A DNA stretch of 64,000 nt from a virus (taxonomy: Duplodnaviria > Heunggongvirae > Uroviricota > Caudoviricetes): IMG/VR virus record IMGVR_UViG_3300045256_000127. One strand, written 5' to 3'. Numbering within the stretch: the first letter of the stretch is position 1; each line of letters begins with the position of its first letter. Below, piece after piece: positions 26,087 through 49,286 of the stretch. The notes beneath the pieces are model-generated. The model was not told where the DNA came from. It did not search any database and worked only from the letters and a program-made list of their open reading frames with translations. A program made the translations under genes and the position numbers.

Positions 26087-26116
26087 AAGCCCGGCCAAGT
26101 GCCGGGCTTTTTCTTT
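26087..26116 (+). terminator. rho-independent terminator
   Basis: aagcccggc-caagt-gccgggctt followed by tttctttaat. Confidence 0.65.
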
Positions 26117-26151
26117 AATAGGACTTCCAAATGTAAGCCGGATTGTGTAAT

Positions 26152-33008: not shown

Positions 33009-33091
33009 AGAAATTCGGCTAGGAAGCCGATACAATGGGCACGGGCGAAGATGCCCGTGCCTGTTTTGTTTCCAAACCAGGGAAGGTTAAC

Positions 33092-34462
33092 ATGTCGAAT
33101 ATGAAGCACCCCATCATGGGGTACGAGAACCTGCACCGCCACTCCGAGTACAGTCTGCTGGACGGGTTCGCAAAGGTCGGCGAGTACGCCGCCTACTCCA
33201 AAGAGGCAAACCAGCGTTACCTCTGCATCACCGACCACGGCGTCATGGGGGCCGTTCCGCAGCAGGTCGGCGAGTCCGAAAAGCACGGCCTGAAGCCCAT
33301 CTTCGGCATCGAGTTCTACATCAACCCGATGCAGCCCAAGTCCGAGTACCGTGAGCAGAACGCCGAATTCCGTAAGGGGTTGGGCACCGAGGAAGAACAG
33401 AAGCGGTTCGACAAGAGTCACCACCTGCTCGGCATCGCCCGCACCAACCAGGGCTACACCAACCTCGTGCGGCTGAGTACCTGGGCCTGGGTTCACGGCT
33501 ACTACCGTCGGCCCCGCATCAACCACGACATCCTGAATCAGTACAAAGAAGGGATCATCTTCACGAGTACCTGTGCCAACAGTGAAATCGCCAACGCCTT
33601 CTTCGACCACGGCGAGGAAGCGGGGATGGCGAAGGTGCAGCAGTACATCGACTTCTTCGGGAAAGAGAACTTCTTCCTCGAACTGATGATGCTCGACTTC
33701 AAGATGCAGAAGCCCTACGACGCCTTCCTGCTACGGGCGATGGATCGGTTCGGCCTGCAAGTCCTGCTCTCCACCGACTGCCACTACTGCAAGAAGGAAC
33801 ACGCCCTGAACCAGCGGATGATGCTCATGGTTCAGACGGGCCGGACCATGCAGGAGATCGAAGCCCTCGTCGCTTCGGGTGCGGCCGACGACCTGTTCGA
33901 GCTTCAGGACACGAACCTGTGGATGAAGACCGAAGATGAGATGAACCAGATGTGGGAGGAGAAGTACCAGGACACCATCGACTACGAAATCTTCAAGTGT
34001 GCGAAGGCGAACACGGTGAAGGTGTGCGAGATGTGTGCCGGGGTGCAGATCGACCGGGGCATCAAGCTGCCGATTGAGGAAGACGAAAAGAAGCAGTTGA
34101 TGAAGTTGATCCGGGAGGGCGTGGACCGGCGGAAGGTGCCGATGACCCGCCAGTACCTTGACCGAATCAAGGAAGAGTACCAACTGATCTGTGACAAGGG
34201 GTTCGCCTCGTACTTCCTGATTCAGAAGAAGATGGTGGATGAGGCGTTGCGGGTGTGCCCGGAGATTTACGGGTTTCAGGACTCGTCGATGGCCCGAGGG
34301 CCGGGGCGGGGGTCAGTAGGCGGCTCGCTGGTCGCCTACTGTCTGGACATTCACGATCTCGATCCGATCAAGCACGGGCTGCTGTTCTCTCGGTTCCTCA
34401 GCCCGGCTCGTGGTGGTAAGCAGATGAAAACTCGCTTCTCGCTTAGCCCCTGCGGCGGTTAA
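33092..34462 (+). CDS. dnaE: DNA polymerase III alpha (DnaE) N-terminal fragment: PHP domain to the GPGRGS helix
   Basis: PHP motif LHRHSEYSLLDG. DnaE hallmark GPGRGSVGGSLVAYCLDI...FLSPAR. Ends 16 aa after FLSPAR, before the catalytic PDxDxDF. Confidence 0.8.
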   Translation: MSNMKHPIMGYENLHRHSEYSLLDGFAKVGEYAAYSKEANQRYLCITDHGVMGAVPQQVGESEKHGLKPIFGIEFYINPMQPKSEYREQNAEFRKGLGTEEEQKRFDKSHHLLGIARTNQGYTNLVRLSTWAWVHGYYRRPRINHDILNQYKEGIIFTSTCANSEIANAFFDHGEEAGMAKVQQYIDFFGKENFFLELMMLDFKMQKPYDAFLLRAMDRFGLQVLLSTDCHYCKKEHALNQRMMLMVQTGRTMQEIEALVASGAADDLFELQDTNLWMKTEDEMNQMWEEKYQDTIDYEIFKCAKANTVKVCEMCAGVQIDRGIKLPIEEDEKKQLMKLIREGVDRRKVPMTRQYLDRIKEEYQLICDKGFASYFLIQKKMVDEALRVCPEIYGFQDSSMARGPGRGSVGGSLVAYCLDIHDLDPIKHGLLFSRFLSPARGGKQMKTRFSLSPCGG

Positions 34463-35285
34463 GTGCCCGCATCAGGTGTTCCATAGCAGGCGGCATGGGC
34501 TTCTTCGGAAGTGCCATGCCGCTGTCGTCCATAGCGTTCGGATCGACGGCAGCCGGATCACCGTCCAGGGTCATCTCGTCGCCCATCCCGTCTTCATCTC
34601 CCGGCAGCGGTTCTTCGTCGCCGTCGTGCTGCATCTGGCCCAGGAAGTCCATGTCGTCGTCGCCGAGGGTGGCGTCTTCGTCACCCATCTCGCCGTCGTC
34701 GCCCATGTCCTCTTCGGCGTCCGGGTCGTCCATCCCGTCCATTCCCATACCGTCTTCGTCATCGAATTCGGAGAGTCCAAAGTCCTCGTAAGGCGGGGCG
34801 ACTTCTTCCTTCTTCAGTGCGCTGACGAGCTTGCGGCTCAGGGTCGGGCCGAAGTCCTTATTAGCCATCACTTCGGCAAGGTGCTTGAAGGTGTCGTTGT
34901 GGGTGAACATTTCCGCAACCACCACGCCCATCGCACCACGACGCTTCAGGTCGGCGATCAGGTGTTCGGCCAGGAACGGGTTATCAGCGATGGCGGCGGC
35001 AGCGGCCTTCACTGCTTGAATGCCCTCAGCGGTCGGAATCTTGACGTTCTTGCAGGTCTTCTCCGGGTCGTACTTGAGAGCCGAATCGCCCTCGTCGCCG
35101 AAGCCCTTCGTGGCCTTTTTGAGCTTTTTGCCGCCGTCAGCGTAGTGCTTCGGGGTGTACTGTGCGTTCCCCTTCGGCGGTTGTTTGGATTTGCCGGACG
35201 GCATATCTACTTTGTCAGCGACATCCTTAACAACAGGCTTATCAAGCTTACCGCTGCTGCTCAGGTATTCAGAAAAAATTCCCAT
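34443..35285 (-). CDS. highly acidic Asp/Gly/Met-rich protein
   Basis: Middle region is repetitive (DGMGMDGMDDPDAEEDMGDDGEMGDEDATLGDDDMDF). Basic N-terminus. Confidence 0.5.
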   Translation of the reverse strand: MGIFSEYLSSSGKLDKPVVKDVADKVDMPSGKSKQPPKGNAQYTPKHYADGGKKLKKATKGFGDEGDSALKYDPEKTCKNVKIPTAEGIQAVKAAAAAIADNPFLAEHLIADLKRRGAMGVVVAEMFTHNDTFKHLAEVMANKDFGPTLSRKLVSALKKEEVAPPYEDFGLSEFDDEDGMGMDGMDDPDAEEDMGDDGEMGDEDATLGDDDMDFLGQMQHDGDEEPLPGDEDGMGDEMTLDGDPAAVDPNAMDDSGMALPKKPMPPAMEHLMRALNRRRG

Positions 35286-35339
35286 GTTTTCACCTGTGGT
35301 TATTTAGCACGATCCGACTCATTTAGATCGGAGGTATCT

Positions 35340-35600
35340 ATGAACGAACAGAAAGAAATCAACCTATTCGAGCGGCATGACCCGTTCTCGAACGGCCAAG
35401 TATTCGACGCCAACGCCGTCACCTACGACCAGGACGGGGACTACTGGAAGCAGCTTTACTGGCTCCAGCGGCACATCGTCCAGTCTTTCCGCAAGGCCAA
35501 CCTCCCGAACAGATTGGCTAAGGACTACGCCGCCCGCTACGGCCGAGACATCCTCGACCGGGCGAAGGCTAAGAGCCTCCCGACGGAACCGGCCGTTTAA
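35340..35600 (+). CDS. hypothetical protein
   Basis: GGAGGT RBS then MNEQKEINLFERHDPFS. Confidence 0.45.
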   Translation: MNEQKEINLFERHDPFSNGQVFDANAVTYDQDGDYWKQLYWLQRHIVQSFRKANLPNRLAKDYAARYGRDILDRAKAKSLPTEPAV

Positions 35601-35911
35601 GTATTCTCATCCCAGCAGATGTCCGGGTTGAAGTAAGTGATGTGGGCGGGAGAAGTGGCTTCAAAGTCCTTGAGCCGCTTCGACTTTTTGGCATATCTTT
35701 CATATTTCCGTTGCGCAGCGGACATCTTGCTGGCGGGGTTACACGAACTCGCCAAATTTCCGCCCGTGTAAGGCACGTCTAACACATTCCCGCAGTCCGG
35801 GAACCTAGCCGCCGTTCCGGTCGGCGACTTTCCGACCAACGGCACGATGAACCCCAAAACCGGGGACACGTTCTCGGAACTGTAGTCCGCTTTTGAATCT
35901 GGGCAGGCCAT
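35597..35911 (-). CDS. hypothetical protein
   Basis: AGGAGGA RBS. Confidence 0.4.
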   Translation of the reverse strand: MACPDSKADYSSENVSPVLGFIVPLVGKSPTGTAARFPDCGNVLDVPYTGGNLASSCNPASKMSAAQRKYERYAKKSKRLKDFEATSPAHITYFNPDICWDENT

Positions 35912-35969
35912 ACTCCTCCTTTACGTCCTAAGCCACTCGTGGTAGTATGTAGTGCCAAAGGAGGCACAT

Positions 35970-36272
35970 ATGCGATTAGTAAAACTGCTGCTCGTTCCGG
36001 TCCTGGCCCTCTGTCTGACGGGCTGTGGCGGGTGCCGGGAGCGGCCGAAAGAGGAGCAAGAAGAGAAGCAGCGGCAGTACGTCCCCATCCTGGTGTGCGA
36101 AAAGGACGGGGTGCGGGTGTACAAGGTGTACGACTCGACCGAAGGCGGCACGAGCTACATCTACTTCACCGTGCCCGTCGGGACGACGCACTGGACGACC
36201 GAGGACAGCGAAGGTAACGTGACCCACCACCAAGTTGCCGGTCCGCAGACCGGGGCACCCAAGAAGAAGTGA
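35970..36272 (+). CDS. lipoprotein
   Basis: AAAGGAGG RBS. Signal peptide MRLVKLLLVPVLALCLTGC with lipobox LTGC. Confidence 0.55.
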   Translation: MRLVKLLLVPVLALCLTGCGGCRERPKEEQEEKQRQYVPILVCEKDGVRVYKVYDSTEGGTSYIYFTVPVGTTHWTTEDSEGNVTHHQVAGPQTGAPKKK

Positions 36273-36279
36273 GGACGCC

Positions 36280-36417
36280 ATGCGGTATCACATCTACGTC
36301 TGGTCGGAAGAGGGTGATATCCGGTACTGTAAGTCGGTGAACACGAAGGAGTCGGTGGATGCCCTCCTCTCGGAACTCCGAAGCATCGGCTTCGGGTGCG
36401 AATACCTCGCTTGGTAA
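36280..36417 (+). CDS. possible 45-aa protein
   Basis: MRYHIYVWSEEGDIRYCKS.... Weak. Confidence 0.25.
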   Translation: MRYHIYVWSEEGDIRYCKSVNTKESVDALLSELRSIGFGCEYLAW

Positions 36418-36429
36418 AGGACAACTCTC

Positions 36430-37311
36430 ATGATGCTGGAACTCGCAGTCGCCGACGCCTACGGGGCATGTTTTGAAACCCTGTCGGCAAAGGACATCGG
36501 CGACACGAACGACCTGTCCTACCACAAGCGACTCCAGCCGTCGATCATCAAGCGGGGTAAGTACACCGACGACGCCCAGATGAGCATCGGCGTGGCCGAA
36601 GCTATTCTGGAACGGGACGAGTGGACGAAGCCCTACCTCGCCCAGAAGTTCGTCGATGTCTTCCGCCGTGACCCCCGACGGGGCTACACCGGCCCGTTCT
36701 TCAACATCTTGACCGAGTGCCAGACCGGCGGCGACCTTCTCTCGAAAGTGGACGGCAAGAGCCGCAAGGGCGGCGGCTGCATGAGGGCCGGGCCGTGCGG
36801 CCTCTACCCGACGCTGGAAGAGGTTCAGGAACGGGCCGTCGAGCAGGCGAAGATCACCCACAACTCTGTCGTCGGCGTCATGAGTGCCGCTGCTGCGGCG
36901 TTCATGGTTCACTACTTCGCCTACGATTTGGGAGAGAAAGCCGACCTACGGGAATGGCTGCACAACAACAACTTCCCGTCGAAAGTCACCGGGGCTATCG
37001 ACGACCCGGAGGGCGAGTTCCGTGTTTGGGAACCCGGCCAGAAGGTCGGCAACTTCGGCTGGAGTGTCGTCCTGGCTGCTCTCGCCGCCATCGAGCGGAC
37101 CGATTCCCTGGCCGAGTGCCTGAAGCAGTGCGTGGCCTGGGGCGGCGACACGGACACGGTGGCGACCGTCGCCCTGGCTGCGGCGTCCTGGTCGAAGGAG
37201 ATGAAGAAGGACATGCCGCAGGGACTTGTTGACATGTTGGAGAACGGCAGGTATGGTAGGGACTACCTGATCGAGTTGGATAACAAACTGAAGGCCAAGT
37301 TCGGCCTGTAA
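36430..37311 (+). CDS. ADP-ribosylglycohydrolase (ARH/DraG family)
   Basis: N-terminal ADAYGACFE, hallmark YTDDAQM, and C-terminal GGDTDTVATVALAAAS metal-binding motif. Confidence 0.75.
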   Translation: MMLELAVADAYGACFETLSAKDIGDTNDLSYHKRLQPSIIKRGKYTDDAQMSIGVAEAILERDEWTKPYLAQKFVDVFRRDPRRGYTGPFFNILTECQTGGDLLSKVDGKSRKGGGCMRAGPCGLYPTLEEVQERAVEQAKITHNSVVGVMSAAAAAFMVHYFAYDLGEKADLREWLHNNNFPSKVTGAIDDPEGEFRVWEPGQKVGNFGWSVVLAALAAIERTDSLAECLKQCVAWGGDTDTVATVALAAASWSKEMKKDMPQGLVDMLENGRYGRDYLIELDNKLKAKFGL

Positions 37312-37323
37312 ACGGAGTCGGCT

Positions 37324-37542
37324 ATGGATGGCCTCAAGAACCTGCTAGTCTACATCTGCCTGTTCACGGGCTTCCCGTTCGCATGGCTCTACGTTAAGCT
37401 GTTCTCGTCCCGGCCGAGGCACGGCGGCTTCCTCGAAAACCTCGGCACCGTCGTCCTGGCGATCTGGATCGGCGTAGCCATGTGGATCGTGGCATTCGTC
37501 GCCTTCGCCTGTTTCGGAATCTACAAAGCAATCTGCGGGTAA
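37324..37542 (+). CDS. small membrane protein
   Basis: Two hydrophobic helices. Confidence 0.4.
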   Translation: MDGLKNLLVYICLFTGFPFAWLYVKLFSSRPRHGGFLENLGTVVLAIWIGVAMWIVAFVAFACFGIYKAICG

Positions 37543-37545
37543 ACC

Positions 37546-38277
37546 ATGTTCCCTAGCGGCATTAACGAACTGGCGAAGAATGTCCCTCTGCCGAAGTACC
37601 AGGAACTCCGCATCCTCCTGATGCCGATTGTCCTGGGGGACGCCAGCACGAACCCGTACCCCGACTGCAACCCGATGTTGGAAGTGATGGCAGCGGTCCA
37701 GCCCCAGCACAAGGGGAAGGTCTGTTACCTGACTATCGACCAGAAGGGTGTTCCGGCTGGGAAGACGCACCGTCGTGCCGGGCTGCACGTTGACGGCTAC
37801 CCGTACACCGAAGCCGACAAGCGGATGCTGGACGGCGGATACATTACCTCTGGCGCTGGCGGCATCTGGGCGGCAAACGCCCACGGCGGCACCTGGGGCG
37901 GTGGTGGTGGCTGGGGAGGCGGTAATTCCGCTCTCTACTGGCACATGGGTAACGGCTTGCTGACGGTTTCGAGCGTCGAGGGCTGTGTCGCCTGGAACCA
38001 GGAATTCCCCGGCGAGCCGAAGGTCGAAGGGGATTGTGAACATCTTCGGGAACACTGCAAGGAGGAGTGTAAGGTCGTACTCAAAGCGAATACCCTCTAC
38101 TGGATGAGTCCGGGGTGCGTCCACGAGTCGCTGCCGCAGCCGGTGGACGTGATCCGCACCTTCGTGCGGCTCTCGCTGCCGTCTAAGTGCGATTGGTACG
38201 AGGGTTGTACTCCGAACCCGCTCGGCGTGAAGCCGACGGGGAAGATCAGCCGCCGTCGCCGCTTCTTGGACGTGTAA
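37546..38277 (+). CDS. hypothetical protein; possible Fe(II)/2OG-dioxygenase-like HxD...H triad and a Gly/Trp-rich loop
   Basis: LHVDGYPY (HxD) ... GCVHES (distal H). A GGTWGGGGGWGGGN low-complexity insert. Weak. Confidence 0.45.
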   Translation: MFPSGINELAKNVPLPKYQELRILLMPIVLGDASTNPYPDCNPMLEVMAAVQPQHKGKVCYLTIDQKGVPAGKTHRRAGLHVDGYPYTEADKRMLDGGYITSGAGGIWAANAHGGTWGGGGGWGGGNSALYWHMGNGLLTVSSVEGCVAWNQEFPGEPKVEGDCEHLREHCKEECKVVLKANTLYWMSPGCVHESLPQPVDVIRTFVRLSLPSKCDWYEGCTPNPLGVKPTGKISRRRRFLDV

Positions 38278-38286
38278 TTTTTCTGG

Positions 38287-38315
38287 TTGACAATCACCGA
38301 ACCGAGGGTATAAAT
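38287..38315 (+). promoter_or_regulatory. consensus sigma70 promoter (TTGACA-N16/17-TATAAAT) for tmRNA
   Basis: TTGACA at 38287-38292 and TATAAAT at 38309-38315, about 12 nt upstream of the tmRNA 5' end. Confidence 0.65.
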
Positions 38316-38326
38316 AGGGTGTGCAT

Positions 38327-38720
38327 GGGGCCGCTCCGGTATCGAACCGGCGTCAACGGCCGAAAGGACTTGCGTAGTGGTTGGTCGGTGGGCCACTTAA
38401 AAAAGCCGACTAAGCCTTAACTGGCGATACTCTCAGAATGGCTGCCTGAGTTGTGCCCTCGCAAGGGGGCACCGCAATAGCGGCCAAATGAGTCTTCGGA
38501 CTCAGGGACTCACAGAAGCGATGCTCCAAGCGTCTGTGTTTCTCACGCCAAAAAGGAGACGAAGCCTAGTGAGTGTCGGTTGTAGCTAGGCGGGTCGCTA
38601 ACCGAGAATCCCGGTGGTTTTGCCAGTTGTACGGCACCGTGGATTATCAACAACTGGATACACGCATAAACGCCTTCGGAAGTTCGCTTGGTCACAGGGG
38701 TTCGACTCCCCTCGGCTCCA
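38327..38720 (+). ncRNA. ssrA: tmRNA (SsrA)
   Basis: 5' GGGGCCGCUCCGGUAUCGAAC and 3' GGGGUUCGACUCCCCUCGGCUCCA are collinear with the E. coli tmRNA ends. The acceptor stem pairs with a G3-U70 wobble (alanine identity). CCA is not encoded. About 394 nt. Confidence 0.75.
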
Positions 38721-38728
38721 CTAAGAAA

Positions 38729-38770
38729 ACCCTCCGGCTCCACTGAAAAGTGGCCGGAGGGTTTCTCTTT
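38729..38770 (+). terminator. rho-independent terminator
   Basis: ccctccggc...gccggaggg stem followed by tttctctttt. Confidence 0.7.
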
Positions 38771-38776
38771 TAGTGC

Positions 38777-39337
38777 ATGTCTACAACACAAGTCACCTGT
38801 GCCCACTGCGGCACGTCATTCTCCAAACGCACAGCAGAAGTTAATCGCTCAGTCAAGCTGGGCCGTAAACACTACTGCAATCGTTCTTGCATGGGGAAAG
38901 ACCAACTCGACCACATGCCGTTAGTAAAGCGTGCCAATGCCCAGCACCTTCGAGGCCACGAGAGCAACCGCAAAGACGAGTACAGCCCGTTCCGCTGGCA
39001 CTTCCGCAATGCGATCCGCCGCTCACAAGAGTCGGATCGCAAAGAATGCACGATCACCCTCGATGATCTGAAGAAGCAGTGGGACGACCAGAAAGGAAAG
39101 TGCCCGTACACTGGCTGGGAACTAAAGAACCTGCCAGATACCAACACCAAGAAGCAGCTTCCTCTTACACCAGACCGTGCGAGCCTGGACCGAAAGGATT
39201 CGTCAAAGGGATACGTCCCCGGCAACATCCAGTTCGTCTCGACGATGGCGAACTACGCCAAAAACCGCTGGGGAGATCAAGAGCTATTCGAGTTCTGTGC
39301 TGCGGTTTACAAGGGGCATGTTTCGGGTAAAATGTAG
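38777..39337 (+). CDS. HNH-family homing-endonuclease-like protein (HNH_3 type) with an N-terminal zinc ribbon
   Basis: CAHCG...C..C N-terminus. C-terminal ASLDRKDSSKGYVPGNIQFVS matches the SLDRIDNSKGYxxGNV block of phage HNH_3 endonucleases. Confidence 0.6.
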   Translation: MSTTQVTCAHCGTSFSKRTAEVNRSVKLGRKHYCNRSCMGKDQLDHMPLVKRANAQHLRGHESNRKDEYSPFRWHFRNAIRRSQESDRKECTITLDDLKKQWDDQKGKCPYTGWELKNLPDTNTKKQLPLTPDRASLDRKDSSKGYVPGNIQFVSTMANYAKNRWGDQELFEFCAAVYKGHVSGKM

Positions 39338-39353
39338 CAGATAGGAGGACAAC

Positions 39354-40445
39354 ATGCCAGCGAAGAAGACGTACTCAGAAGTCGTTAAGTTCTTCCAAAA
39401 ACAAGGCCATACACTCCTCACTGAAACCTACCTCGGTTGTAATCAAACTCTCACTTTCAAGTGTCGTTGCGGCGGCACCGGCACCACTACGTTCGCTATG
39501 ATGCGTGCTATCGTCAACCGGGGGAATACGTCTGGTTGTAAAGAATGCCGTGGTGATCGCATCGGCGTCTCCAGCCGATTTACTATTGAGCATGCCAAAC
39601 AAGTCTATGCCGATGCAGGCTGCAAGCTACTAGAAGATCAATACGTCAACCACATCACCCCTATGCGGTACATCTGCTTCTGCGGACGTGAGGGGCGGAC
39701 GAGCTACAACTATTTCACCCAGCACGGGCGGCATTGTAAACAATGCGGTTTTGAAAAACGCACTGAGAAAATCAAGTTCTCCCAAGAGGAGGTTGAAGCT
39801 ATCTTCGAAGCAGAGAACTGTCTCCTCCTCGGCACATACACCGGCTATCACGATTACATTGATTACATCGCTCAATGTAATCACAAAAGTAACGTCACCC
39901 TACAGTATTTCCGAGTCGGGGGCGGTCGGCAGTGCTGGAAGTGCAGTTGGGAAAACAGGGGGTGGCGTGGCCCAGACTGGACTTTCGAGCAGGTCCGTGA
40001 TTACGTCGCCTCCCACGGCTGCGTGCTGCTCTCCACCAGCTACAGCGGCGTGAAAGACCAGATTGAGTACCGCTGCATCTGTGGGTTTCAAACCGAAATC
40101 CGATTCAGCAACTTCAAAGAAGGACACCGTTGCAAAGAATGTTCCAACCGGCTCGGTGGAGATCGCAGGCGGCACTCCTTCGAATTCGTCAAACTCTTCT
40201 TCCAAGAAGCGGGGTGCCGACTCCTCGCCGATGAGTACGTCGGAAAGGACACGGTGATGCCCTACATCTGCGTTTGCGGTCGAAAATCCAAAATCTGCTT
40301 CGCCAGCTTCGCCCGAGGGAGTCGCTGTAAAGACTGTGGGTTCGTGAAGATCAGTGAATCACAACAACTCGCTCGGCGGCTCTGGGAGGAGGCAGAACTA
40401 GGCGATCTGGACAAAATTCTCTCAGACCGCTTGCGTTGTGATTGA
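39354..40445 (+). CDS. tandem-repeat Cys4 zinc-ribbon module protein (about 7 modules)
   Basis: Repeated about 48-aa module: F..(Q/E)GC.LL...Y......(M/L).Y.C.CG(R).......F..G.RC..CG. Confidence 0.55.
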   Translation: MPAKKTYSEVVKFFQKQGHTLLTETYLGCNQTLTFKCRCGGTGTTTFAMMRAIVNRGNTSGCKECRGDRIGVSSRFTIEHAKQVYADAGCKLLEDQYVNHITPMRYICFCGREGRTSYNYFTQHGRHCKQCGFEKRTEKIKFSQEEVEAIFEAENCLLLGTYTGYHDYIDYIAQCNHKSNVTLQYFRVGGGRQCWKCSWENRGWRGPDWTFEQVRDYVASHGCVLLSTSYSGVKDQIEYRCICGFQTEIRFSNFKEGHRCKECSNRLGGDRRRHSFEFVKLFFQEAGCRLLADEYVGKDTVMPYICVCGRKSKICFASFARGSRCKDCGFVKISESQQLARRLWEEAELGDLDKILSDRLRCD

Positions 40446-40495
40446 GTTGTGTTTAAGATGTGTTTGTGTTGAGGAGACGAGGCAAGGAGGCCGGA

Positions 40496-41407: not shown

Positions 41408-41408
41408 C

Positions 41409-42140
41409 ATGGCGGCACACATGAACGAAGTTGGCACCGAGGCGAAGGCGATCCTGGCCGACGTGGGCAAGATCGGCAAGCGGGTGATGGAGCAATACTA
41501 CCGGGGCTTCCTGGCAGCCCTGCACGATGTCCATAAGGGCTGGCGGCATCTCAAGCCCCGTGAGCGGAAGGTCGTGTTCGAGAAGGTGCAGGACACGGCG
41601 AAGGAACTCATCGTCTGCAAGGAGGACGGCGGCGGGGCCGACGACGGCTTGGCCCTGGGCACTTTCCACGGGTACGTCTGCAAAATCAAGCGTGCCCTGA
41701 TCTTCAACGTTCCGCTGGAGATCGCCGAGCGGGCGACGAACCAGGAACTCCAAAAGGCCCAGGTGTACGTCAACGACGTGCTTAAGGAATCGCCACAACC
41801 GCTCGAAGACAAGATGGTTCTGGCCTACAAGTGGGTCAAGGAGGAACAGATCAAGGCGAAGCAGCGGTTGAAAGAAGAGGCCGACAGGCTCATCAACCAA
41901 CCGACTGCGGCCACCCTGGAGACGGCATACACCCTGCCCGATCCCGATCAGTATAAGGAGGAGGATTCAGACGCCCTGCTCAACGACATCATCCACGGCA
42001 TCCATGCGTGTTTGACCAGTCGGGGGCTGAAGCCGCATCTGACGAAGGATACCCCGGCGGCACGAGTGCTTCGGCGGGTTCTCGGCGAAATCTCGGTGTA
42101 CGAGACTTTGGGCGAATCGCCCTGCACGGCCGCTGGCTAA
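41409..42140 (+). CDS. hypothetical protein
   Basis: 243-aa ORF. A stem-loop follows at 42150-42178. Confidence 0.45.
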   Translation: MAAHMNEVGTEAKAILADVGKIGKRVMEQYYRGFLAALHDVHKGWRHLKPRERKVVFEKVQDTAKELIVCKEDGGGADDGLALGTFHGYVCKIKRALIFNVPLEIAERATNQELQKAQVYVNDVLKESPQPLEDKMVLAYKWVKEEQIKAKQRLKEEADRLINQPTAATLETAYTLPDPDQYKEEDSDALLNDIIHGIHACLTSRGLKPHLTKDTPAARVLRRVLGEISVYETLGESPCTAAG

Positions 42141-42194
42141 GTCAATCACACGCCCGCATTCACTGAATGCGGGCGTGTTGAACAGGAGGTTCAC

Positions 42195-42500
42195 ATGCGA
42201 TACGACGTTCACTACGCCAAGATCGTTCGGCACGAGTTGGTGGTAGAAGTGGAGGCGAACAGCGAAGAGGAGGCCATCCAGAAAGCCCTGAAGGGGCGGC
42301 ACGAGGCCGTGTTGGAGGATGACATCTCGGTCGAGACGGAGTTCGACCCGATGCAAGATCATCACTGCGATCCTGATTGGTCAACTGCCAACGAACCGGC
42401 GGACAATCCTGATTGGGCAACCGCCGAGCCAGACGATTTTCCAGCCGAAACCCTTTACGCACGGGACTTCATGCCCTATGATCCCACGAAGGGATTCTGA
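42195..42500 (+). CDS. acidic hypothetical protein
   Basis: CAGGAGG RBS. D/E-rich. Confidence 0.45.
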   Translation: MRYDVHYAKIVRHELVVEVEANSEEEAIQKALKGRHEAVLEDDISVETEFDPMQDHHCDPDWSTANEPADNPDWATAEPDDFPAETLYARDFMPYDPTKGF

Positions 42501-42507
42501 CTTAACC

Positions 42508-42552
42508 TCGACCCTCGCCAGACCTACCCCCTGGCGAGGGTCTTTCTTTTGG
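42508..42552 (+). terminator. rho-independent terminator
   Basis: accctcgccag...ctggcgagggt followed by ctttctttt. Confidence 0.65.
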
Positions 42553-42559
42553 TGCAAGG

Positions 42560-42721
42560 ATGCACGACGACTACGACGACTACTACTCCGAAAGCCTTTT
42601 GGAAGAAAACTGGAGGCTCAAGCGGGAGAACCGCTACCTCAAGCTCCTCTTCCTCCTACTAGCGGCGGGAACGCTGATCTGGTACTATGACATCATCACG
42701 TTCTTCACCGTGGAGAAGTAA
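42560..42721 (+). CDS. possible 53-aa single-TM protein
   Basis: AAGGA RBS. MHDDYDDYYSE...LLFLLLAAGTLIWYYDIITFF. Confidence 0.3.
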   Translation: MHDDYDDYYSESLLEENWRLKRENRYLKLLFLLLAAGTLIWYYDIITFFTVEK

Positions 42722-42722
42722 G

Positions 42723-43040
42723 ATGAATAGACTTGTCCGCATTGCACTGACGGCACTGATCGTCGTCCTGGTCGGCCTGCTCGTGGGCTGCGGTGGCCCG
42801 TCAACCCCGCTCCCCAAAGGACACGTCGCCAAGATCATTGCCACCCAGAACTACTACAACATCCTGATCGAGAACGAGGGGGTCGTTGTTACCAAACAAT
42901 ACCCATACCACCGGGTCACGTTCGTCACGGGCCTGAAGGCCGACGAGCAGATGTGGATCGAGCCTGACCCGAACGACGGCCTCAGAGTCATCGTCCACGT
43001 CCACACCATCAGGCTCGACATCCAAACACAGGCAGAATAA
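42723..43040 (+). CDS. lipoprotein
   Basis: Signal MNRLVRIALTALIVVLVGLLVGC with lipobox LVGC. Confidence 0.5.
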   Translation: MNRLVRIALTALIVVLVGLLVGCGGPSTPLPKGHVAKIIATQNYYNILIENEGVVVTKQYPYHRVTFVTGLKADEQMWIEPDPNDGLRVIVHVHTIRLDIQTQAE

Positions 43041-43540
43041 TGTTCGAACTCACCAAAGCCAACTGGACGCCGTTCTTCGGCAACAACCACGAAAAGCTGC
43101 CCTGGCCCGACGTGTACGCCGGTGGCTCGGTCCGGTTCCACCGGCACGTCGGCAGGCCGCTCAGCCAAGAACTCTGGGAAGACTTGGTACACCGCCTACT
43201 CGTAACCGGCATGTGCATCTACCGGCCGAACGACGGCATGTGGACGGTCGGATGGGGCAGCGGCCACATCATCATCCACCTGGACGACAAGGACAACGTA
43301 AAGTCCTTCGACTACTTCCCCCGGCACGACAAGCCGCTGCAAGGGGTGTTCGTCTACTATGACTGCAAGCCGGAAGAGATCAAGGTGTTCCGCTACCTCT
43401 CGCACGCCAAGCAGTTCTGCGAGGAGAAGTGGAACAAGTCGCTCGGGCCGGGCGAAACGGTCGAGTGGACCGAGCCGGAACCCGGCGTCTACCTGTACAA
43501 TGGTGGTGTAGGAACCATCAGAGGAACCCCGTTCTCCTGA
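43040..43540 (+). CDS. hypothetical protein
   Basis: TAATG overlap with the upstream gene. Coding composition. Confidence 0.45.
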   Translation: MFELTKANWTPFFGNNHEKLPWPDVYAGGSVRFHRHVGRPLSQELWEDLVHRLLVTGMCIYRPNDGMWTVGWGSGHIIIHLDDKDNVKSFDYFPRHDKPLQGVFVYYDCKPEEIKVFRYLSHAKQFCEEKWNKSLGPGETVEWTEPEPGVYLYNGGVGTIRGTPFS

Positions 43541-43580
43541 TCGGCATGACGCCGATCACTAACAGCAAGGATGCTAAGAC

Positions 43581-44087
43581 ATGGAAGTCTTCGAGGTTCA
43601 CATTACCGGCGACAGCCGGATTCACGAAGCTGCCAAGAAGTACAACATCAAGTCGATTGAGGTTGAACTTCTACGACCCGACTACTCGGTGCTTCGTACT
43701 GAACACATGACATCCCATGTGTTCAAGTTCCCAAACTACGAAGAGTGCATCCAGCACGTCCTGAACCTCCGGGACGAGTTAAAGCGGTGGTGCGCCGTGT
43801 GGCGGGTCAAGGTGGAGTGCCCGGCGTTCTACGAACACTACCGGGACCGCAGCATCTACCTGGAGAGCCACTTCGAAACCAAAGACAACATGTATCCCAT
43901 TAGCCGGAACGTGAAGAAGACGACGCTGATGGGCACGGACCGCACCTACGCCCACGAGGACTACGACAACTTCCTCCGCATCTGGAAGGGCCAGACGCTC
44001 GAACTCGCCCTCTACGACTCGTTCGTGGAAGAAGACTTCGACTGGCTCGACATGTGGGGCGTTACGAAAGAGGCGGTTTATTGCTGA
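43581..44087 (+). CDS. hypothetical protein
   Basis: 168-aa ORF. Confidence 0.45.
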   Translation: MEVFEVHITGDSRIHEAAKKYNIKSIEVELLRPDYSVLRTEHMTSHVFKFPNYEECIQHVLNLRDELKRWCAVWRVKVECPAFYEHYRDRSIYLESHFETKDNMYPISRNVKKTTLMGTDRTYAHEDYDNFLRIWKGQTLELALYDSFVEEDFDWLDMWGVTKEAVYC

Positions 44088-44314
44088 GGCTTCTCGATGA
44101 TGAGCTTCCGTTCCGGGGTTTTGATGTTGAACCGGAACGGCTCTTTCCCTTCACGGCGGGGGATTTCGATGATGTTCGTGCCCTCCGGCACCGTGATGGT
44201 GCGAGGGCCGTCCAGGTCGGGCTTGATCTTGATGCCCTTGAAGCACAACAGGCACGCCACCCCGATCAGGGTGGTGAGGCACAGCAGTACGAGAAGGGTC
44301 TTCTTTGTGTCCAT
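44078..44314 (-). CDS. possible secreted/membrane small protein
   Basis: MDTKKTLLVLLCLTTLIGVACLL signal-like N-terminus. Confidence 0.3.
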   Translation of the reverse strand: MDTKKTLLVLLCLTTLIGVACLLCFKGIKIKPDLDGPRTITVPEGTNIIEIPRREGKEPFRFNIKTPERKLIIEKPQQ

Positions 44315-44324
44315 GAGGGTATTT

Positions 44325-44654
44325 ATGGGCAAGGTGTATATTTGCGAAATCTGGGCGTTCGAGGTAATGGACGAGCGTGACCAGAACTACGACGGATATT
44401 TTGGCCGGGAAACCGAACCTCCGGCCGGGCTGGAGTGTCACGTCTACAGTTCGGTGAGCAGCAAGCTGTTCCCGCCGCACTACCCGGTCAAGTTCCTCGA
44501 CGCCATGAAGTTCGGCCCGAAGAACCGGGTCAGGATGGTTGCAAACAGTGAAGAAGCAGACTATACTGACTTCACGGTCGGGATGTCCCTCGTGCTGGAC
44601 GAGGACGGCCGCAAGATCGGGTACGGAAGTATCACCGAGGTACTAGATAACTGA
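44325..44654 (+). CDS. hypothetical protein
   Basis: GAGGG RBS then MGKVYICEIWAFEV. Confidence 0.4.
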   Translation: MGKVYICEIWAFEVMDERDQNYDGYFGRETEPPAGLECHVYSSVSSKLFPPHYPVKFLDAMKFGPKNRVRMVANSEEADYTDFTVGMSLVLDEDGRKIGYGSITEVLDN

Positions 44655-44731
44655 CATGAACCACATCAAACTCTACCGGCTCATTGGCCGAGCCACCTTC
44701 CACAGTATTTTCCCGTGGAGGGTAATCACCA

Positions 44732-45064
44732 ATGAGAAGATGGCATCAAGACTACAAGATCGCTCGGCGTAACTGGCGGATTCACCGGCAGTCCCACGTC
44801 CGTAACAACCTCGATCAAAGCGTCGGGTACGAGAACTGGCAGCGTTTGCCGGGAGCGTCCCCGTTCGTGGTGAAGTGCGCCTGTGACGAACAGGTCGGGC
44901 GGTTCCGCAAGAAGGACGCCTGGGACTGCGGCAAGCCGCACTGCATGATCTGCCACAGCGACAAGTTCCCGAAGCGGGAAAAGACCCCGCAGGAACTCCT
45001 GTCAGAGAAGGACTTCAAGGAAGCCCTTAAGGACTTCTACGATCATTCTCAGAGCCAAGAGTAG
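44732..45064 (+). CDS. hypothetical Cys/His-containing protein
   Basis: 110-aa ORF. Confidence 0.4.
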   Translation: MRRWHQDYKIARRNWRIHRQSHVRNNLDQSVGYENWQRLPGASPFVVKCACDEQVGRFRKKDAWDCGKPHCMICHSDKFPKREKTPQELLSEKDFKEALKDFYDHSQSQE

Positions 45065-45395
45065 TTGGCGAGCCGGTAGCTTCTTGTAGGTTATCGGCAC
45101 CTACCTGCACTCGGATGAATTCCAGAAGTGGACCCAGAACCTCGCTCCAGGTAAAGAGCGGGGATTTCTCGACGTACACTCGGAAGGCTTGCGAGGACGC
45201 TACCACTACGCCCGGAACGGCAAAGATACCGTCCATGAAGTCGGACGGGTCGCCGCCGCCGTTGACGTACTCTTCTTTGCCAATCTTCGAACAGTAGGCG
45301 GGCACGTCGGTCTTTAACTGAATGAAGACCCCTTCGTCGGACGCCCCGCCGATGCCCTTGAAATACTCCAGTTTGAAAACAAGATCGAAAGCCAT
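45027..45395 (-). CDS. hypothetical protein
   Basis: Minus-strand ORF with an AGGTG RBS. Confidence 0.35.
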   Translation of the reverse strand: MAFDLVFKLEYFKGIGGASDEGVFIQLKTDVPAYCSKIGKEEYVNGGGDPSDFMDGIFAVPGVVVASSQAFRVYVEKSPLFTWSEVLGPLLEFIRVQVGADNLQEATGSPTTLGSENDRRSP

Positions 45396-45486
45396 AGTTT
45401 AACACCTAAAAGGAACACTTGACACGCCTGTAGTATTTAACTATAGTGACTCTGGAATTCACCAACCTTCCGAACAAGGATGTTCA

Positions 45487-46554
45487 ATGAACGAAAACGC
45501 TGAACTCAACCAGATGCTTTCGAAGGCTTGCAGCAGCGGGATGCCCGCTGTAAAGAGCAGCCGTCCTCCCCGTGGTCGTGACTACGACGACGATGACGAC
45601 GAGTTCGAGGATCAGGTTACTCAGTCGTACTCTCAGTGGACGACGAGCAACGGCCGGGTGTTCGTGCCCGCCTCCACCACCAAGAACAAACTGCCGCCGG
45701 GCGTCTACGAGATCGACAGCAGCCCGAACATCGGTTTGTACTTCGAGAAGATTCCGGTCAAGACCGAAGGTCTGCTCCGCTTCCCGGATACCAACTCCGA
45801 CAAGGTGGTGGACGAAATCCAGCGGTTCTGGACGCTCGAAGAGAAGTTCAAAGAGTACAGCCTTGCCTACAAGCGGGGCATCCTGCTCTGGGGTCCGCCG
45901 GGGTCGGGCAAGTCCTGCACCCTGCAACTCATCATGGCCGACGTTATCAAACGTGGCGGGCTGGTGGTGAAGTTCGACGACCCGTACCTCTTCATCGACG
46001 GCATGCGGGTGCTTCGCCGCATCCAGCCGGAAACGCCGGTCGTCGTGATGCTCGAAGACATCGATAGCATCATCAAGATGTACAACGAGTCCGAGGTTCT
46101 GAACATCCTCGACGGCGTTAACGAGACGAACCGGATGGTGTTCCTGGCGACCACCAACTACCCGGAGGAGCTTGGGCACCGCATCGTCAACCGGCCGAGC
46201 CGGTTCGACAAGCGGTTCAAGATCGGGTTCCCGTCCGCCGCAAGCCGGAAGATGTACTTCGAACACCTGATCGGCGGCAAGAAAAAGGTGAAGGAACTCG
46301 GAATTGACCTAAAGCAATGGGTCACGGACACCGATAAGTTCTCCATCGCCCACCTGAAGGAACTGTTCATCGCAGTACACATCCTCGGCGACAACTACGA
46401 GGAGGCGGTCAAGACCCTGCAATCCATGCGGGAGGACATCGACACTCGGGAGAGTGACGACATGATGTCCAACATCTTCACCGGCCGGAAGACTAACAAG
46501 GAAGAGGACGTTGCGTACTATGACGATGACGGTGACGACTCCTGCGGCGGGTAA
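45487..46554 (+). CDS. AAA+ ATPase (classical AAA family)
   Basis: Walker A GILLWGPPGSGKS, Walker B VVVMLEDIDS, and second region of homology TTNYPEELGHRIVNRPSRFDKRF. Confidence 0.8.
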   Translation: MNENAELNQMLSKACSSGMPAVKSSRPPRGRDYDDDDDEFEDQVTQSYSQWTTSNGRVFVPASTTKNKLPPGVYEIDSSPNIGLYFEKIPVKTEGLLRFPDTNSDKVVDEIQRFWTLEEKFKEYSLAYKRGILLWGPPGSGKSCTLQLIMADVIKRGGLVVKFDDPYLFIDGMRVLRRIQPETPVVVMLEDIDSIIKMYNESEVLNILDGVNETNRMVFLATTNYPEELGHRIVNRPSRFDKRFKIGFPSAASRKMYFEHLIGGKKKVKELGIDLKQWVTDTDKFSIAHLKELFIAVHILGDNYEEAVKTLQSMREDIDTRESDDMMSNIFTGRKTNKEEDVAYYDDDGDDSCGG

Positions 46555-46625
46555 GAATAACAACTAGGCGCATCACAATGAACGGGGTATAATCACCCCG
46601 TTCATTTCATTTGTAGGAGAACGTC

Positions 46626-49286
46626 ATGAAGGAACGTGACGAACTGGTAGCCCTGCTGGAAGCGGCTTTGGACGCAAAGGGCTTACGGAACGATCAGTAC
46701 ACAAATCGACTGGCTCTCGAACTGAAAGAACTCGACGTTCTTGAAGAACACGAATACTTTCTCAAGCTGCACAAAGAGGGGAAGAAGTACCCTGAGAACG
46801 AGAACAACCTTCTCGTCCCATATCTGCTCGACCTGTGCCCCGACTTCGACATCAACCGGGAACCCGCCTACAACCAGGGCGAGTTCCCCGACATCGACAT
46901 GGACTACCTGCCGCTCGTCCGTGACCACTTGAAGAACGAGTGGGCGGTGAAGGAGTACGGCCGGGATTACGTCTGCTCCATCGGCACCTACGGCACCCTG
47001 GGCATCAAGGCAGCCATGCTCGACATGGCCCGTGTCCACGGCGTCCCGAAGGACGAAGTGCAGATGGTTACGAAACAGGTCGAAGACAAGGACGACGAAG
47101 GCGAGCCGATGGAGTGGGACAAGGCTCTCGAACTCTACGCCGACTTCAAGGCGTTCTGCGAGCGGCACCCGGACGTGGCCGCAGCCGCCAAGATGATGCT
47201 GGACCGGAACAAATCGGGCGGCGTCCACGCCGGGGGACTCATCATCTCCTCCAAGCCGATCCAAGACTTCGTGCCGCTCGAAGTGCGGTCAGTGAAGAAG
47301 GAGAACAAGCACGGCGTCCTCGTCTCGGCGTGGTGCGAGGGGCAGGCCACCCAGGACTTGCAGCCGGTCGGGCTGGTGAAGTTCGACTTGCTGGTGGTGG
47401 ACGGGTTGATGCAGATCGCCCAGGCGTGCGAACTCATCCGCCAGCGGCACGGCATCGAGCGGATCAACGCCCTGCCGGGCGGGCGGAACTGGAGCGACAC
47501 GGCCTACCTCAACGACCCGAAGGCGTTGGCGATGGCGAACAAGGCCGACCTGAAGTGCGTGTTCCAGTTCGGGTCGGACGGCATCCGGGCGATGGTCAAG
47601 CGGGGCGGCGTGACGAGCTTCGACGACCTGATGGCGTACTCGGCCCTCTACCGCCCCGGCCCGCTGAACATGGGGATGGATAAGCACTACTGCGACCGGA
47701 AGAAGGGGATCGAGCAGTGGAGCATCCACCCGCTGCTCATGCCGATCCTGGGGCGGACTTACGGGGTTCTTGTTTACCAAGAGCAGTGTATGCAAGTCCT
47801 CCACACGGTAGGACTCATCCCGCTCATTCACTGCGAGAAGGTCCGCAAGGCCATCTCGAAGAAGAAGATCGCCCTGTTCGCCAAGTACAAGGACATGTTC
47901 ATTACGAACGGTCAGAAGGTACTCGGCGAGAGCGAGGAGTTCGTCCGTGACCTGTGGGACCAGATCGAGGCGTTCGCCGACTACGGCTTCAACGCCAGCC
48001 ACAGTTGTGCGTACACCTACATCTCCTCCCGGCAGTTGTGGCTCAAGGCCCACTACCCGCTGGAGTATTACACTGCGGTCCTGATGTGCGAAGACCAGTC
48101 GGACAAGATTAAGGAGATCAAGCAGGACGCCCGGAAGCACGGCATCGAAGTCAAGCCGGTGCATATCAACCACAGCCGGGAACTGTTCCGCATCGTGGAC
48201 AACGACATCTACTACGGGTTCAGTAACCTGAAGAAAGTCGGCGAGGCGGTGGCGAAGCGGATCGTGGCGGGGCAACCCTACGCCTCGTTCGAGGACTTCC
48301 TGCAACGGTTCGGGACCGACATGCAGGTGTTGAAGCCGCTCATCTCCCTCGGCGTGTTCGAGGAGAAGGTGGACCGGATCACGCTGTACAAGTTCTACGA
48401 CAAGTACAGCGATTGGCTCAAGAAGTGTAAGAGCCGGGACAAGCGGTTCGAGGAGAGCCAAGCCAAGTACGAAACCGAACTCCGGGAACTGCTGAAGCAG
48501 TACGGGGCGGACGAGAAGGAAGTCGAGGCGATGGCCCGGTTCGACGATGATGTCATCAGTGAATGGGAAGCCCGGTTCGGCAACATCAAGGTCGAACAGC
48601 AGTACAAGTACAAGGGCGAGATGCGGACCCGTGAAGTGTCCGTGGTCAAGTTCATGACCGACATCCACGGGCGGCGGAACAAGGGCGTGCGAGGCCAGGA
48701 GGAGAAGACCCGGCTCGACCAAGAGGAACCGCCGACCCTGGCGACCTTCAACGCTAAGACGTGGCCGCTGGAGCAGGCGATCATCGAACTGCTCTCCGAC
48801 GAGAAGGCAGCCGAACAGGAATACTACGGCTTCCAGTGGGTACACGACCTGGAAGAAAGCCCCGACTACGAAGGGTTCACCATCGACCGCTTCACCGAGG
48901 TTGTGGCGAACCGGAAGGAGCCGAGGGGTGCCATCGAGGTTAAGGTACTCCAGGTGACGAAGCGGGAGTTCAAGACCGGCACCATCGCCTACGACGTGAA
49001 GGTGGAAGACGCCAACGGCAAGGTGGTGATCGTCCGGTTCTGGAGCGACGACTACACCCGGTTCCAAGAGGAGATCACGCCCGGTGCGCTCCTACGGCTG
49101 CACGTCAAGCCGCCGGAAGGGTTCCCGAGCTATTCCTTCTGGGCACCGCCGAAGCACCTGCGGCACCGGCTTGTCCCGAAGGATAAGAGCCTGGACGACC
49201 GGCTGTACGTCCTGACGCCGGGGGCGAAGAAGGTTGTCGTGCAAGAGGAGAAACCGGAAGAGGGATTCGAACTGATGGAAGCCTGA
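46626..49286 (+). CDS. dnaE: DNA polymerase III alpha (DnaE) C-terminal fragment: catalytic palm, fingers and OB fold
   Basis: PDIDMDY...YGRDYVCSIGTYGTLGIKAAMLDMARVHG (E. coli PDFDVDF...[29 protein letters not shown]), HAGGLIIS (E. coli HAGGVVIA), and a C-terminal OB-like domain. Confidence 0.85.
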   Translation: MKERDELVALLEAALDAKGLRNDQYTNRLALELKELDVLEEHEYFLKLHKEGKKYPENENNLLVPYLLDLCPDFDINREPAYNQGEFPDIDMDYLPLVRDHLKNEWAVKEYGRDYVCSIGTYGTLGIKAAMLDMARVHGVPKDEVQMVTKQVEDKDDEGEPMEWDKALELYADFKAFCERHPDVAAAAKMMLDRNKSGGVHAGGLIISSKPIQDFVPLEVRSVKKENKHGVLVSAWCEGQATQDLQPVGLVKFDLLVVDGLMQIAQACELIRQRHGIERINALPGGRNWSDTAYLNDPKALAMANKADLKCVFQFGSDGIRAMVKRGGVTSFDDLMAYSALYRPGPLNMGMDKHYCDRKKGIEQWSIHPLLMPILGRTYGVLVYQEQCMQVLHTVGLIPLIHCEKVRKAISKKKIALFAKYKDMFITNGQKVLGESEEFVRDLWDQIEAFADYGFNASHSCAYTYISSRQLWLKAHYPLEYYTAVLMCEDQSDKIKEIKQDARKHGIEVKPVHINHSRELFRIVDNDIYYGFSNLKKVGEAVAKRIVAGQPYASFEDFLQRFGTDMQVLKPLISLGVFEEKVDRITLYKFYDKYSDWLKKCKSRDKRFEESQAKYETELRELLKQYGADEKEVEAMARFDDDVISEWEARFGNIKVEQQYKYKGEMRTREVSVVKFMTDIHGRRNKGVRGQEEKTRLDQEEPPTLATFNAKTWPLEQAIIELLSDEKAAEQEYYGFQWVHDLEESPDYEGFTIDRFTEVVANRKEPRGAIEVKVLQVTKREFKTGTIAYDVKVEDANGKVVIVRFWSDDYTRFQEEITPGALLRLHVKPPEGFPSYSFWAPPKHLRHRLVPKDKSLDDRLYVLTPGAKKVVVQEEKPEEGFELMEA

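Follow-up and report, generated by a model that had tools for sequence, protein, structure and literature searches.

Organization of the polymerase locus

The DNA analysed here (hereafter "the window") is a stretch of 64,000 nucleotides from a tailed virus (Duplodnaviria; Heunggongvirae; Uroviricota; Caudoviricetes), deposited as IMG/VR virus record IMGVR_UViG_3300045256_000127. It contains two open reading frames (ORFs), referred to below as N and C, which cover different parts of a DnaE-type (C-family) replicative DNA polymerase and are separated by a variable spacer (Table 1). The initial annotation, made from the sequence without database searches, described them as a single DnaE-type polymerase divided into two ORFs, neither of which is complete by itself. 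Both ORFs are confirmed, and their alignments to Pfam models and to solved structures are complementary.

Table 1. Features of the polymerase locus, of its spacer and of the remaining part of the window
Feature	Position	Strand	Description
Gene N	33092-34462	+	456 aa; PHP domain, then the nucleotide-binding (N-terminal) half of a DnaE-type Pol-beta-like palm
PHP domain	33131-33688	+	putative proofreading exonuclease; Pfam PF02811, residues 33-218 of the 475-aa ORF
GPGRGS	34298-34315	+	nucleotidyltransferase-fold GS motif; predicted to bind an incoming dNTP by its triphosphate
N tail, GGKQMKTRFSLSPCGG	34412-34459	+	16 aa past the last residue alignable to intact DnaE; conserved basic strand-like appendage
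Gene C	46626-49286	+	886 aa; leader, metal-binding half of the palm, thumb, fingers, HhH, OB-like C-terminal domain
C leader, residues 1-85	46626-46880	+	diverged second copy of the N palm helices up to and including the GS motif
Catalytic strand PDIDMD	46887-46904	+	two of the three metal-binding aspartates; aligns with Taq D463/D465
K252-F253-D254	47379-47387	+	third catalytic aspartate and adjoining lysine; aligns with GLLKMDFLG of Taq Pol III alpha
Terminator-like hairpin between AAA gene and C	46577-46606	+	followed by AGGAG Shine-Dalgarno sequence and ATG 46626
Spacer	34463-46625		12.2 kb, variable: ARH, tmRNA, three endonuclease-like genes, small ORFs, AAA gene
Convergent acidic-protein gene	34443-35285	-	overlaps the 3' end of N (last 20 bases); D+E 60 of 280 residues
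ARH gene	36430-37311		spacer gene
tmRNA gene	38327-38723		phage type; tag peptide GDTLRMAA (then stop)
Endonuclease VII/HNH-like gene	38777-39337		directly 3' of the tmRNA gene
Two phrog_559 HNH-family genes	39354-40445, 40460-41407		paralogous
AAA ATPase gene	45487-46554	+	YjoB/Afg2/Cdc48-like classical AAA; Pfam AAA, E-value 6e-12; PDB matches YjoB, Afg2, Cdc48
PrkA (AAA_PrkA + PrkA), DUF444, SpoVR triad	24008-29388		upstream of the polymerase locus
RecA-like recombinase	5463-6683
DEAD/ResIII helicase	10247-12364
TnsA-like endonuclease	15754-16680	-	with zinc fingers
ThyX	20057-20959
PfkB kinase-cytidylyltransferase fusion	21271-22641
DHH phosphoesterase	50738-51847
Peptide deformylase	57359-57835

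In N, Pfam searches identified the PHP domain (PF02811, E-value 3e-36) and positions 2-98 of the 260-position palm model DNA_pol3_alpha. Alignment to solved structures extends over residues 4-411 of Mycobacterium tuberculosis (Mtb) DnaE1 and stops on the N side at the sequence FLSPAR, and DnaE structures top the Foldseek matches of the predicted N model. Among 51 homologues of N, seven PHP residues do not vary (D21, H46, E71, H108, C158, D226, H228) and two more hardly vary (H12, H14); we take these nine positions to be equivalent to the metal ligands of Mtb DnaE1. The palm part of N likewise contains residues that are invariant in all 51 proteins, namely G402-R403-G404-S405 of the GS motif, R431 (of FSRFL) and R437. 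By presumed analogy with the Thermus ternary complex, in which we take the GS motif and the arginine of F-E-R-F to contact the triphosphate of the incoming deoxynucleoside triphosphate (dNTP), the GS motif and R431 would form the nucleotide-binding part of the active site. The start codon of N is likely ATG 33092, as annotated initially, and not ATG 33035, because the latter sits within a terminator-like hairpin; furthermore, a GGAAGG box (a Shine-Dalgarno sequence) precedes ATG 33092 and the gene call in a 93% identical relative agrees with it.

C matches positions 99-259 of DNA_pol3_alpha (after its first 85 residues), the fingers domain (PF17657, E-value 3.5e-37) and HHH_6 (PF14579, E-value 4e-16). 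Its alignment to solved structures covers residues 460-971 of Taq (Thermus) Pol III alpha, DnaE structures are the best Foldseek matches of its model, and the C-terminal beta domain of the model matches OB folds. P88, D89, D91 and D93 in the first catalytic strand are invariant in 61 homologues of C, and so are K252, D254 and many residues of the fingers. The hairpin ahead of C has a 12-bp stem, with TATAAT in its loop and a T-rich run on its 3' side, after which come AGGAG and the start codon. A hairpin with a T-run that resembles it is found ahead of N, at about 33040-33075.

Position of the break and an intact orthologue

The palm model DNA_pol3_alpha is cut between N and C exactly between positions 98 and 99, and the alignments to the solved structures abut, with N ending at Mtb DnaE1 residue 411 and residue 86 of C beginning at residue 412. 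The break lies inside the Pol-beta-like palm, four residues ahead of the first catalytic aspartate, which corresponds to R396 of E. coli and residue 411 of Mtb. The active site is therefore divided, with the GS motif and the FSR arginine on N, and D89, D91, D254 and K252 on C, which agrees with the initial statement that neither ORF encodes a complete polymerase. The hallmarks of a DnaE-type enzyme (PHP, GS motif, three carboxylates, fingers, HhH and OB) are all present, but they are spread over two proteins: where a C-family DnaE is by definition one polypeptide, the window has two genes at a distance of 12.2 kb from each other, and a convergent gene intervenes.

In a collection of 50,697 phage records searched with tblastn, just one record matches closely, the uncultured 595-kb huge phage LR756511.1, in which dnaE is a single ORF of 1179 aa (L001:6699-10238). 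Residues 1-433 of this protein correspond to N (47% identity) and residues 435-1175 to residues 86-866 of C (42-43% identity), with one residue between the two segments. Compared with it, N and C together miss nothing, and the tail of N and the leader of C are the only additions; the intact protein has neither of them and possesses a single copy of the palm helices, which is of the N type. The locus of LR756511.1 is syntenic with that of the window (DUF444, SpoVR, an AAA ATPase that is 55% identical, dnaE and downstream genes), and a weak homologue of the acidic-protein gene also precedes its AAA gene. The order differs in one respect: in LR756511.1 the AAA gene is upstream of the whole dnaE, whereas in the split forms N is upstream of the AAA gene. 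The position of the AAA gene beside C as well as beside the intact dnaE suggests a functional link of the ATPase with the polymerase that is independent of the split. The AAA gene was considered as a candidate clamp loader and rejected as such, its product being a classical AAA protein with a match to a clamp-loader PHROG of E-value 6e-4 at best.

Appendages at the junction

The 16 residues of N that extend past the last position alignable to intact DnaE show a consensus GGKQMKxRxTxxP common to essentially all N-type proteins (all listed split homologues), and the conservation of the first ten positions (0.73) is close to that of the PHP domain (0.76). An interpretation of the tail as read-through junk was rejected on the grounds of this conservation across the clade. 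The pattern of the tail alternates as in a beta-strand, and a shift by one residue pairs M-K-I-R-F/H with I-D-I-D-F of the catalytic strand. The tail is possibly a degenerate, charge-reversed relic of the PDIDxDF strand, although this equation is based on a short pattern and carries no statistics.

The leader of C was initially regarded as a duplicated and diverged copy of the segment that precedes the junction in N, and profile comparisons bear this out. Alignment of the C leader family with the N family by hhalign matched leader residues 3-46 with N residues 329-373 (numbered from M23) with a probability of 84% and an E-value of 7e-6. With relaxed settings the alignment continues collinearly on to leader residue 84 (NNLLVPYLLDL... 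versus GGSLVAYCLDI...). Residues 18-85 of C were also aligned by phmmer and tblastn with the region upstream of PDIDxD in intact DnaEs. MAFFT, unprompted, placed R28/E32 of the leader on R355/E359 of N and put the leaders partly on N palm columns in rows that contain only C. The leader has P-E-N-E-N-N in place of GPGRGS and the loop preceding it is about 20 residues shorter; an arginine equivalent to that of FSRFL is not conserved. The consensus ...RLKxELKEIDxQxEHEYFLxL...FPxNExNNLVxYLLGL...FDI...QGEF/PDIDIDY (the slash marks the junction) is nevertheless kept in all 120 C homologues, with R28, E32, Y44 and N61 invariant and N58 nearly invariant.

Distribution and age of the split

Relatives of both halves were collected from 5.8 billion proteins, and the best 120 per half were considered. 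The N relatives are 56-93% identical to N and 408-483 aa long, except four that contain inteins (739-832 aa), while the C relatives are 48-94% identical to C and have 874-983 aa, or 1076-1359 aa if they carry inserted sequence; a PHP domain was found in none of the best 120 C relatives. Their sources are assemblies of JGI, ENA, Logan and NCBI, with contigs as long as 693 kb. The same split was thus encountered in the best 120 relatives of each half. Every relative closer than LR756511.1 is split, and at just 42-47% identity LR756511.1 does not represent a contiguous dnaE in a close relative, a finding that would have spoken against the division of the gene in the window.

The gene order was read in the loci of five relatives whose N proteins are 49-93% identical to that of the window (L002, L003/L004, L011, L012 and L013). 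In all five, N is separated from the AAA gene behind it by a variable stretch in which both strands carry genes. N and C are found on one locus in four of them (the L011 locus ends after the AAA gene), and wherever C was read (L002, L004, L012, L013) the AAA gene precedes it directly or with one small gene between. The distance from N to C is 4.3, 5.1, 6.7, 9.0 and >9.3 kb in the relatives, compared to 12.2 kb here. PrkA-DUF444-SpoVR lies upstream in L003/L004, L011 and L013, and DUF444-SpoVR in L002. When N and C proteins were matched by the length of their contigs, 21 N/C pairs resulted.

More remote members were sought among 1.84 billion cluster representatives, of which the best 150 were listed. 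Twenty-six of these clusters (at 50% identity) contain proteins that end at most 60 residues after the pattern F-x-R-F-L-x3-R with a GG(K/R/Y) tail, and some of the GG-tail split clusters (P0263, P0265, P0268, P0271, P0304, P0381) are just 31-42% identical to N. P0246 (1049 aa) has the tail GGKSMKVRF followed by about 200 more residues, so that some N halves are C-terminally extended. A different set of short strand-like tails (LPQLMLE, LPLMRLDL(TA), KTSMKIFH...) characterizes five more clusters (P0273, P0349, P0319, P0283 and P0332; identity to N about 31-36%), whose proteins end at the same position. They fall among intact DnaEs in a neighbour-joining tree, which points to independent fissions at the same site. 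For three distant N-type genes the neighbourhood was looked up, and unrelated genes come next.

The intact proteins of the LR756511 type (P0251, P0255, P0257, P0258; FSRFLSKARNDLPDADVDF) are 48-50% identical to N and no more distant from it than some of the split forms. In the neighbour-joining tree of N parts, which is without support values, the split forms with GG tails make up one large clade in which the intact group is nested. The topology suggests a single ancient fission that was followed by re-fusion, or else fission on several occasions, and the synteny fits either direction equally well. Tblastn searches of the 50,697 phage records with N, C and two distant N-type proteins revealed no close split relative among the matches listed; the best matches were LR756511.1 (intact) or records about 31-35% identical. 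The genes of Streptomyces phages Hydra and Paradiddles, considered as possible split cases, were rejected as they are intact. With 22 kb of the window as query, megablast gave no match in the phage collection. Judged by these comparisons, the split is clade-wide and old.

The spacer between N and C

The spacer contents were for the most part described correctly at the outset (tmRNA, i.e. transfer-messenger RNA, and the ARH, AAA and endonuclease VII/HNH-like genes), but the acidic protein, also listed then, is encoded on the minus strand. Its product is 72% identical to the homologue from L002, compared to 58% for the overlapping plus-strand ORF, and the same strand was called in the relative; the plus-strand ORF (34476-35600) was consequently rejected as a shadow of the minus-strand gene. 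The AT skew is negative at 34-36 kb, unlike in the flanks. Because this convergent gene lies between N and C, and because each of them is preceded by a separate hairpin and Shine-Dalgarno sequence and begins with a start codon of its own, the two genes are, as read from the DNA, separate cistrons in separate transcription units.

Comparison with the 93% relative revealed extra blocks in the window at 37.3-38.3 kb and 38.7-42.8 kb (38670-42814), while the relative has genes that the window lacks. The second, 4.1-kb block with the endonuclease genes is absent from this relative with a 93%-identical N, in which the tmRNA is retained, and it looks like a recent insertion beside the tmRNA gene. On the evidence of such comparisons, the spacer is a hotspot of insertions and deletions, and its present cargo is younger than the split and hence cannot have caused it.

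A probable polymerase of two subunits and the alternatives

In the reading that we consider probable, N and C together make up a single C-family (DnaE-type) replicative polymerase of a huge phage, as its two subunits, and the active site of this enzyme is assembled in trans. An ancestral dnaE would have been broken inside the Pol-beta-like palm, just ahead of the catalytic strand. N would contribute the PHP domain, with a probable proofreading function, and the elements that bind the dNTP triphosphate (the GS motif and the FSRFL arginine), while C would contribute the three metal-binding carboxylates, the thumb, the fingers, the HhH and the OB-like domain, and thereby the binding of metal ions and DNA. 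The two proteins would be translated independently and associate non-covalently to rebuild the active site. The vestiges of the other side of the break, i.e. the 85-aa leader on C with the helices of the GS motif and the short basic strand-like tail on N, appear to be under purifying selection, and may now serve in folding or docking of the heterodimer.

AlphaFold2 models of the separate proteins agree with a mutual dependence of N and C. For C alone the mean pLDDT (the per-residue confidence of the model) is 83.8, with values of 77-92 in the leader and above 90 in the fingers, while the catalytic strand 83-93 and the palm strands 197-203, 216-222 and 232-253 are below 50; K252 falls within the last of these segments and D254 directly behind it. 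For N alone the mean is 87, and residues 432-446 (FLSPAR and the tail) are below 50. The parts that are conserved and yet modelled with low confidence are just those expected to meet across the junction.

Several points weigh against an active site shared by N and C. The low confidence in the palm of C could reflect the depth of the alignment (61 sequences), not the absent partner. The leader is predicted to fold confidently alone and keeps the polar residues N58 and N61 at the GS site, so that C might bind dNTP without N. The association of the two proteins and their activity are something we infer, and the equation of the tail with the PDIDxDF strand is drawn from a pattern of few residues, without statistical support. 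Finally, 64 kb of the genome are visible; another complete polymerase may be encoded elsewhere, in which case the pair would not necessarily be the main replicase.

The strongest competitor, which we regard as unlikely, holds that C is self-sufficient: the leader would replace the lost half of the palm, with N58 and N61 binding the triphosphate, and N would be a free PHP exonuclease or proofreading subunit (like epsilon of E. coli) that uses its palm fragment for docking. The leader is indeed a full-length, collinear copy of the palm helices, modelled with high confidence within C; N61 is invariant and N58 nearly so, and all PHP metal ligands are conserved in N. However, the invariance of GRGS, R431 and R437 of N in 51 diverse homologues goes beyond the needs of docking, and in relatives the GS motif of N-type proteins has itself become the target of an intein. 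Moreover, the GS motif has been lost from the leader, which also lacks a conserved arginine of the FSRFL type; when C is modelled alone, confidence is lowest in the catalytic strands; and the intact orthologue has one copy of the helices, which is of the N type.

The notion that the halves of the two-subunit polymerase are instead joined into one polypeptide by an unrecognised split intein, a trans-splicing RNA or recoding is very improbable. It can be raised because split-intein DnaE is well known in cyanobacteria, because atypical split inteins with very short N fragments exist and because the clade carries several cis-inteins. The absence of an intein at the junction, claimed initially, was corroborated: there is no intein or Hint Pfam match in N or C, in none of 120 C homologues is PDID preceded by HN and Cys, Ser or Thr as the +1 residue (the junction reads ...QGEF/PDID...), the tail of N begins with GG and not with Cys or Ser, and the leader is derived from DnaE and is not intein-like. 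An intein at the N/C junction was accordingly rejected. A scan of the whole spacer with Rfam at E ≤ 1 reported the tmRNA alone, with no intron or other RNA element, and the convergent gene separates N from C.

The cis-inteins of the relatives sit at three other sites, PIFG/C...HN/C in the PHP domain, GPGRG/C...HN/S in the GS motif and GFNK/(S or T)...SN/SH in the fingers; the break is in the palm and not at the fingers site (...FAEY/CFNKSH...) of split-intein DnaE. Carriers are P0055, P0089, P0091 and P0103 among the N-type proteins and P0122, P0124, P0143, P0152 and others among the C-type proteins. The fingers inteins start with Ser or Thr, not with Cys; of 17 long C relatives, all have intein-like boundaries at GFNK/SH and four have intein Pfam matches. 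Inteins typically sit in functionally critical sites, and since a cis-intein has homed exactly into the GS motif of N in relatives, this motif is indirectly indicated to be a functional site.

Equally improbable is a recent split of the polymerase gene by the mobile elements now found in the spacer, i.e. the endonuclease genes or an island associated with the tmRNA, although the presence of three endonuclease-like genes and a tmRNA there, and the recent arrival of the 4.1-kb endonuclease block, could be read in this way. The initial proposal that the HNH or homing-endonuclease-like genes or the tmRNA created or maintain the split is not upheld: the block is missing in the 93% relative, the spacer content differs in every relative examined, and the split also occurs in relatives without those elements and in lineages just 31-49% identical. 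An insertion would, in addition, yield neither the 85-aa overlap nor N upstream of the AAA gene. Least credible of all is the reading of the pair as decaying pseudogenes or as an artefact of assembly. Split genes in metagenomes are often frameshifts or chimeras, but the same break recurs in over 100 different sequences, which were assembled independently and drawn from four data sources, five further contigs were read with the same gene order, and the catalytic residues are invariant on both halves, with tail and leader conserved.

For the origin of the two-subunit polymerase we favour a partial duplication or relocation of the 5' part of dnaE, followed by complementary loss, because N precedes the AAA gene and the halves overlap by 85 aa; neither this gene order nor the overlap can result from simple insertion into dnaE. 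The overlapping remnants would have been kept and later constrained, and the region between the halves would later have become a hotspot for variable cargo. A more far-reaching scenario is offered tentatively and with appreciable doubt, namely that a large and ancient lineage of huge phages possesses an obligate heterodimeric polymerase, locked by the co-opted pseudo-GS leader and the charge-reversed tail (M-K-I-R-F for I-D-I-D-F), that breaks at this site arose repeatedly in further phage lineages, which have other tails, and that the LR756511 type is possibly re-fused.

Other genes in the window

Genes of nucleic acid metabolism and other functions found outside the polymerase locus are given in Table 1. 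The PrkA-DUF444-SpoVR triad, of which DUF444-SpoVR is also found in the intact outgroup LR756511.1, resembles what we take to be the bacterial YeaG/YeaH/YcgB stress or sporulation module, presumably an unusual cargo for a phage.

Significance and comparison with known systems

Replicative polymerases are among the most constrained enzymes, and to divide one just four residues short of its catalytic aspartates is extreme. If the halves rebuild the active site, they represent a natural and widely sampled case of a polymerase active site that tolerates fission. In that case the overlapping vestiges on both halves would also be a clear footprint of a duplication-degeneration route to gene fission, and the pair may be a natural split polymerase useful for engineering conditional or two-component polymerases without inteins. 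For annotation, it is relevant that gene callers name both halves "DNA polymerase III alpha"; pipelines for huge-phage completeness, marker genes and phylogeny should count them as one split gene.

In cyanobacteria (Synechocystis, Nostoc) the catalytic subunit DnaE is also encoded by two distant genes, the break being in the fingers (...FAEY/CFNKSH...) and healed by protein trans-splicing. In contrast, the break described here is in the palm before PDIDxD and has no intein elements, while the GFNK/SH site holds cis-inteins in some members of the clade. Two polypeptides for a replicative polymerase are likewise known in family B, in gp43A/gp43B of some T4-related phages and in the two-subunit PolB of Methanothermobacter, whose halves assemble non-covalently, sometimes with mobile DNA between the genes. 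These enzymes belong to another family and fold and are analogous only, whereas here the division is a stable trait of a very large clade. We know of no duplicated junction segment in the split PolB enzymes.

We found no description of a full-size DnaE split in phages in the literature covered, which included Al-Shayeb et al. 2020 on huge phages, two surveys of polymerases from viruses and bacteria, and full-text searches. The "fractured genes" reported by Dassa et al. 2009 (NAR 37:2560; PMC2677866) from metagenomic, mostly phage-like sequences comprise an essential gene that is divided in two, split-intein halves at the break and, between the pieces, a free-standing endonuclease gene. The endonuclease genes between the pieces of an essential gene are shared with the present locus, but here there is no split intein and the spacer endonucleases are not conserved among relatives. 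The nearest counterpart is the "minimal" Pol III alpha that Iyer et al. 2021 (Viruses 13:63; PMC7824862) described from jumbo phages of group 2.2, where it accompanies a family B replicase (PolB). Its NTP-binding part and its Mg2+/template-binding part are separate proteins encoded by distant genes, which lack the other Pol III domains and are predicted to reconstitute one enzyme. The division into NTP-binding and Mg/template-binding proteins, and its position at the same subdomain boundary, are alike in both systems, as far as can be told from the published description. The pair described here differs in being a full-size DnaE with PHP, fingers, HhH and OB-like domains, in having an intact orthologue of 1179 aa, and in the reciprocal vestiges that N and C carry at the junction.

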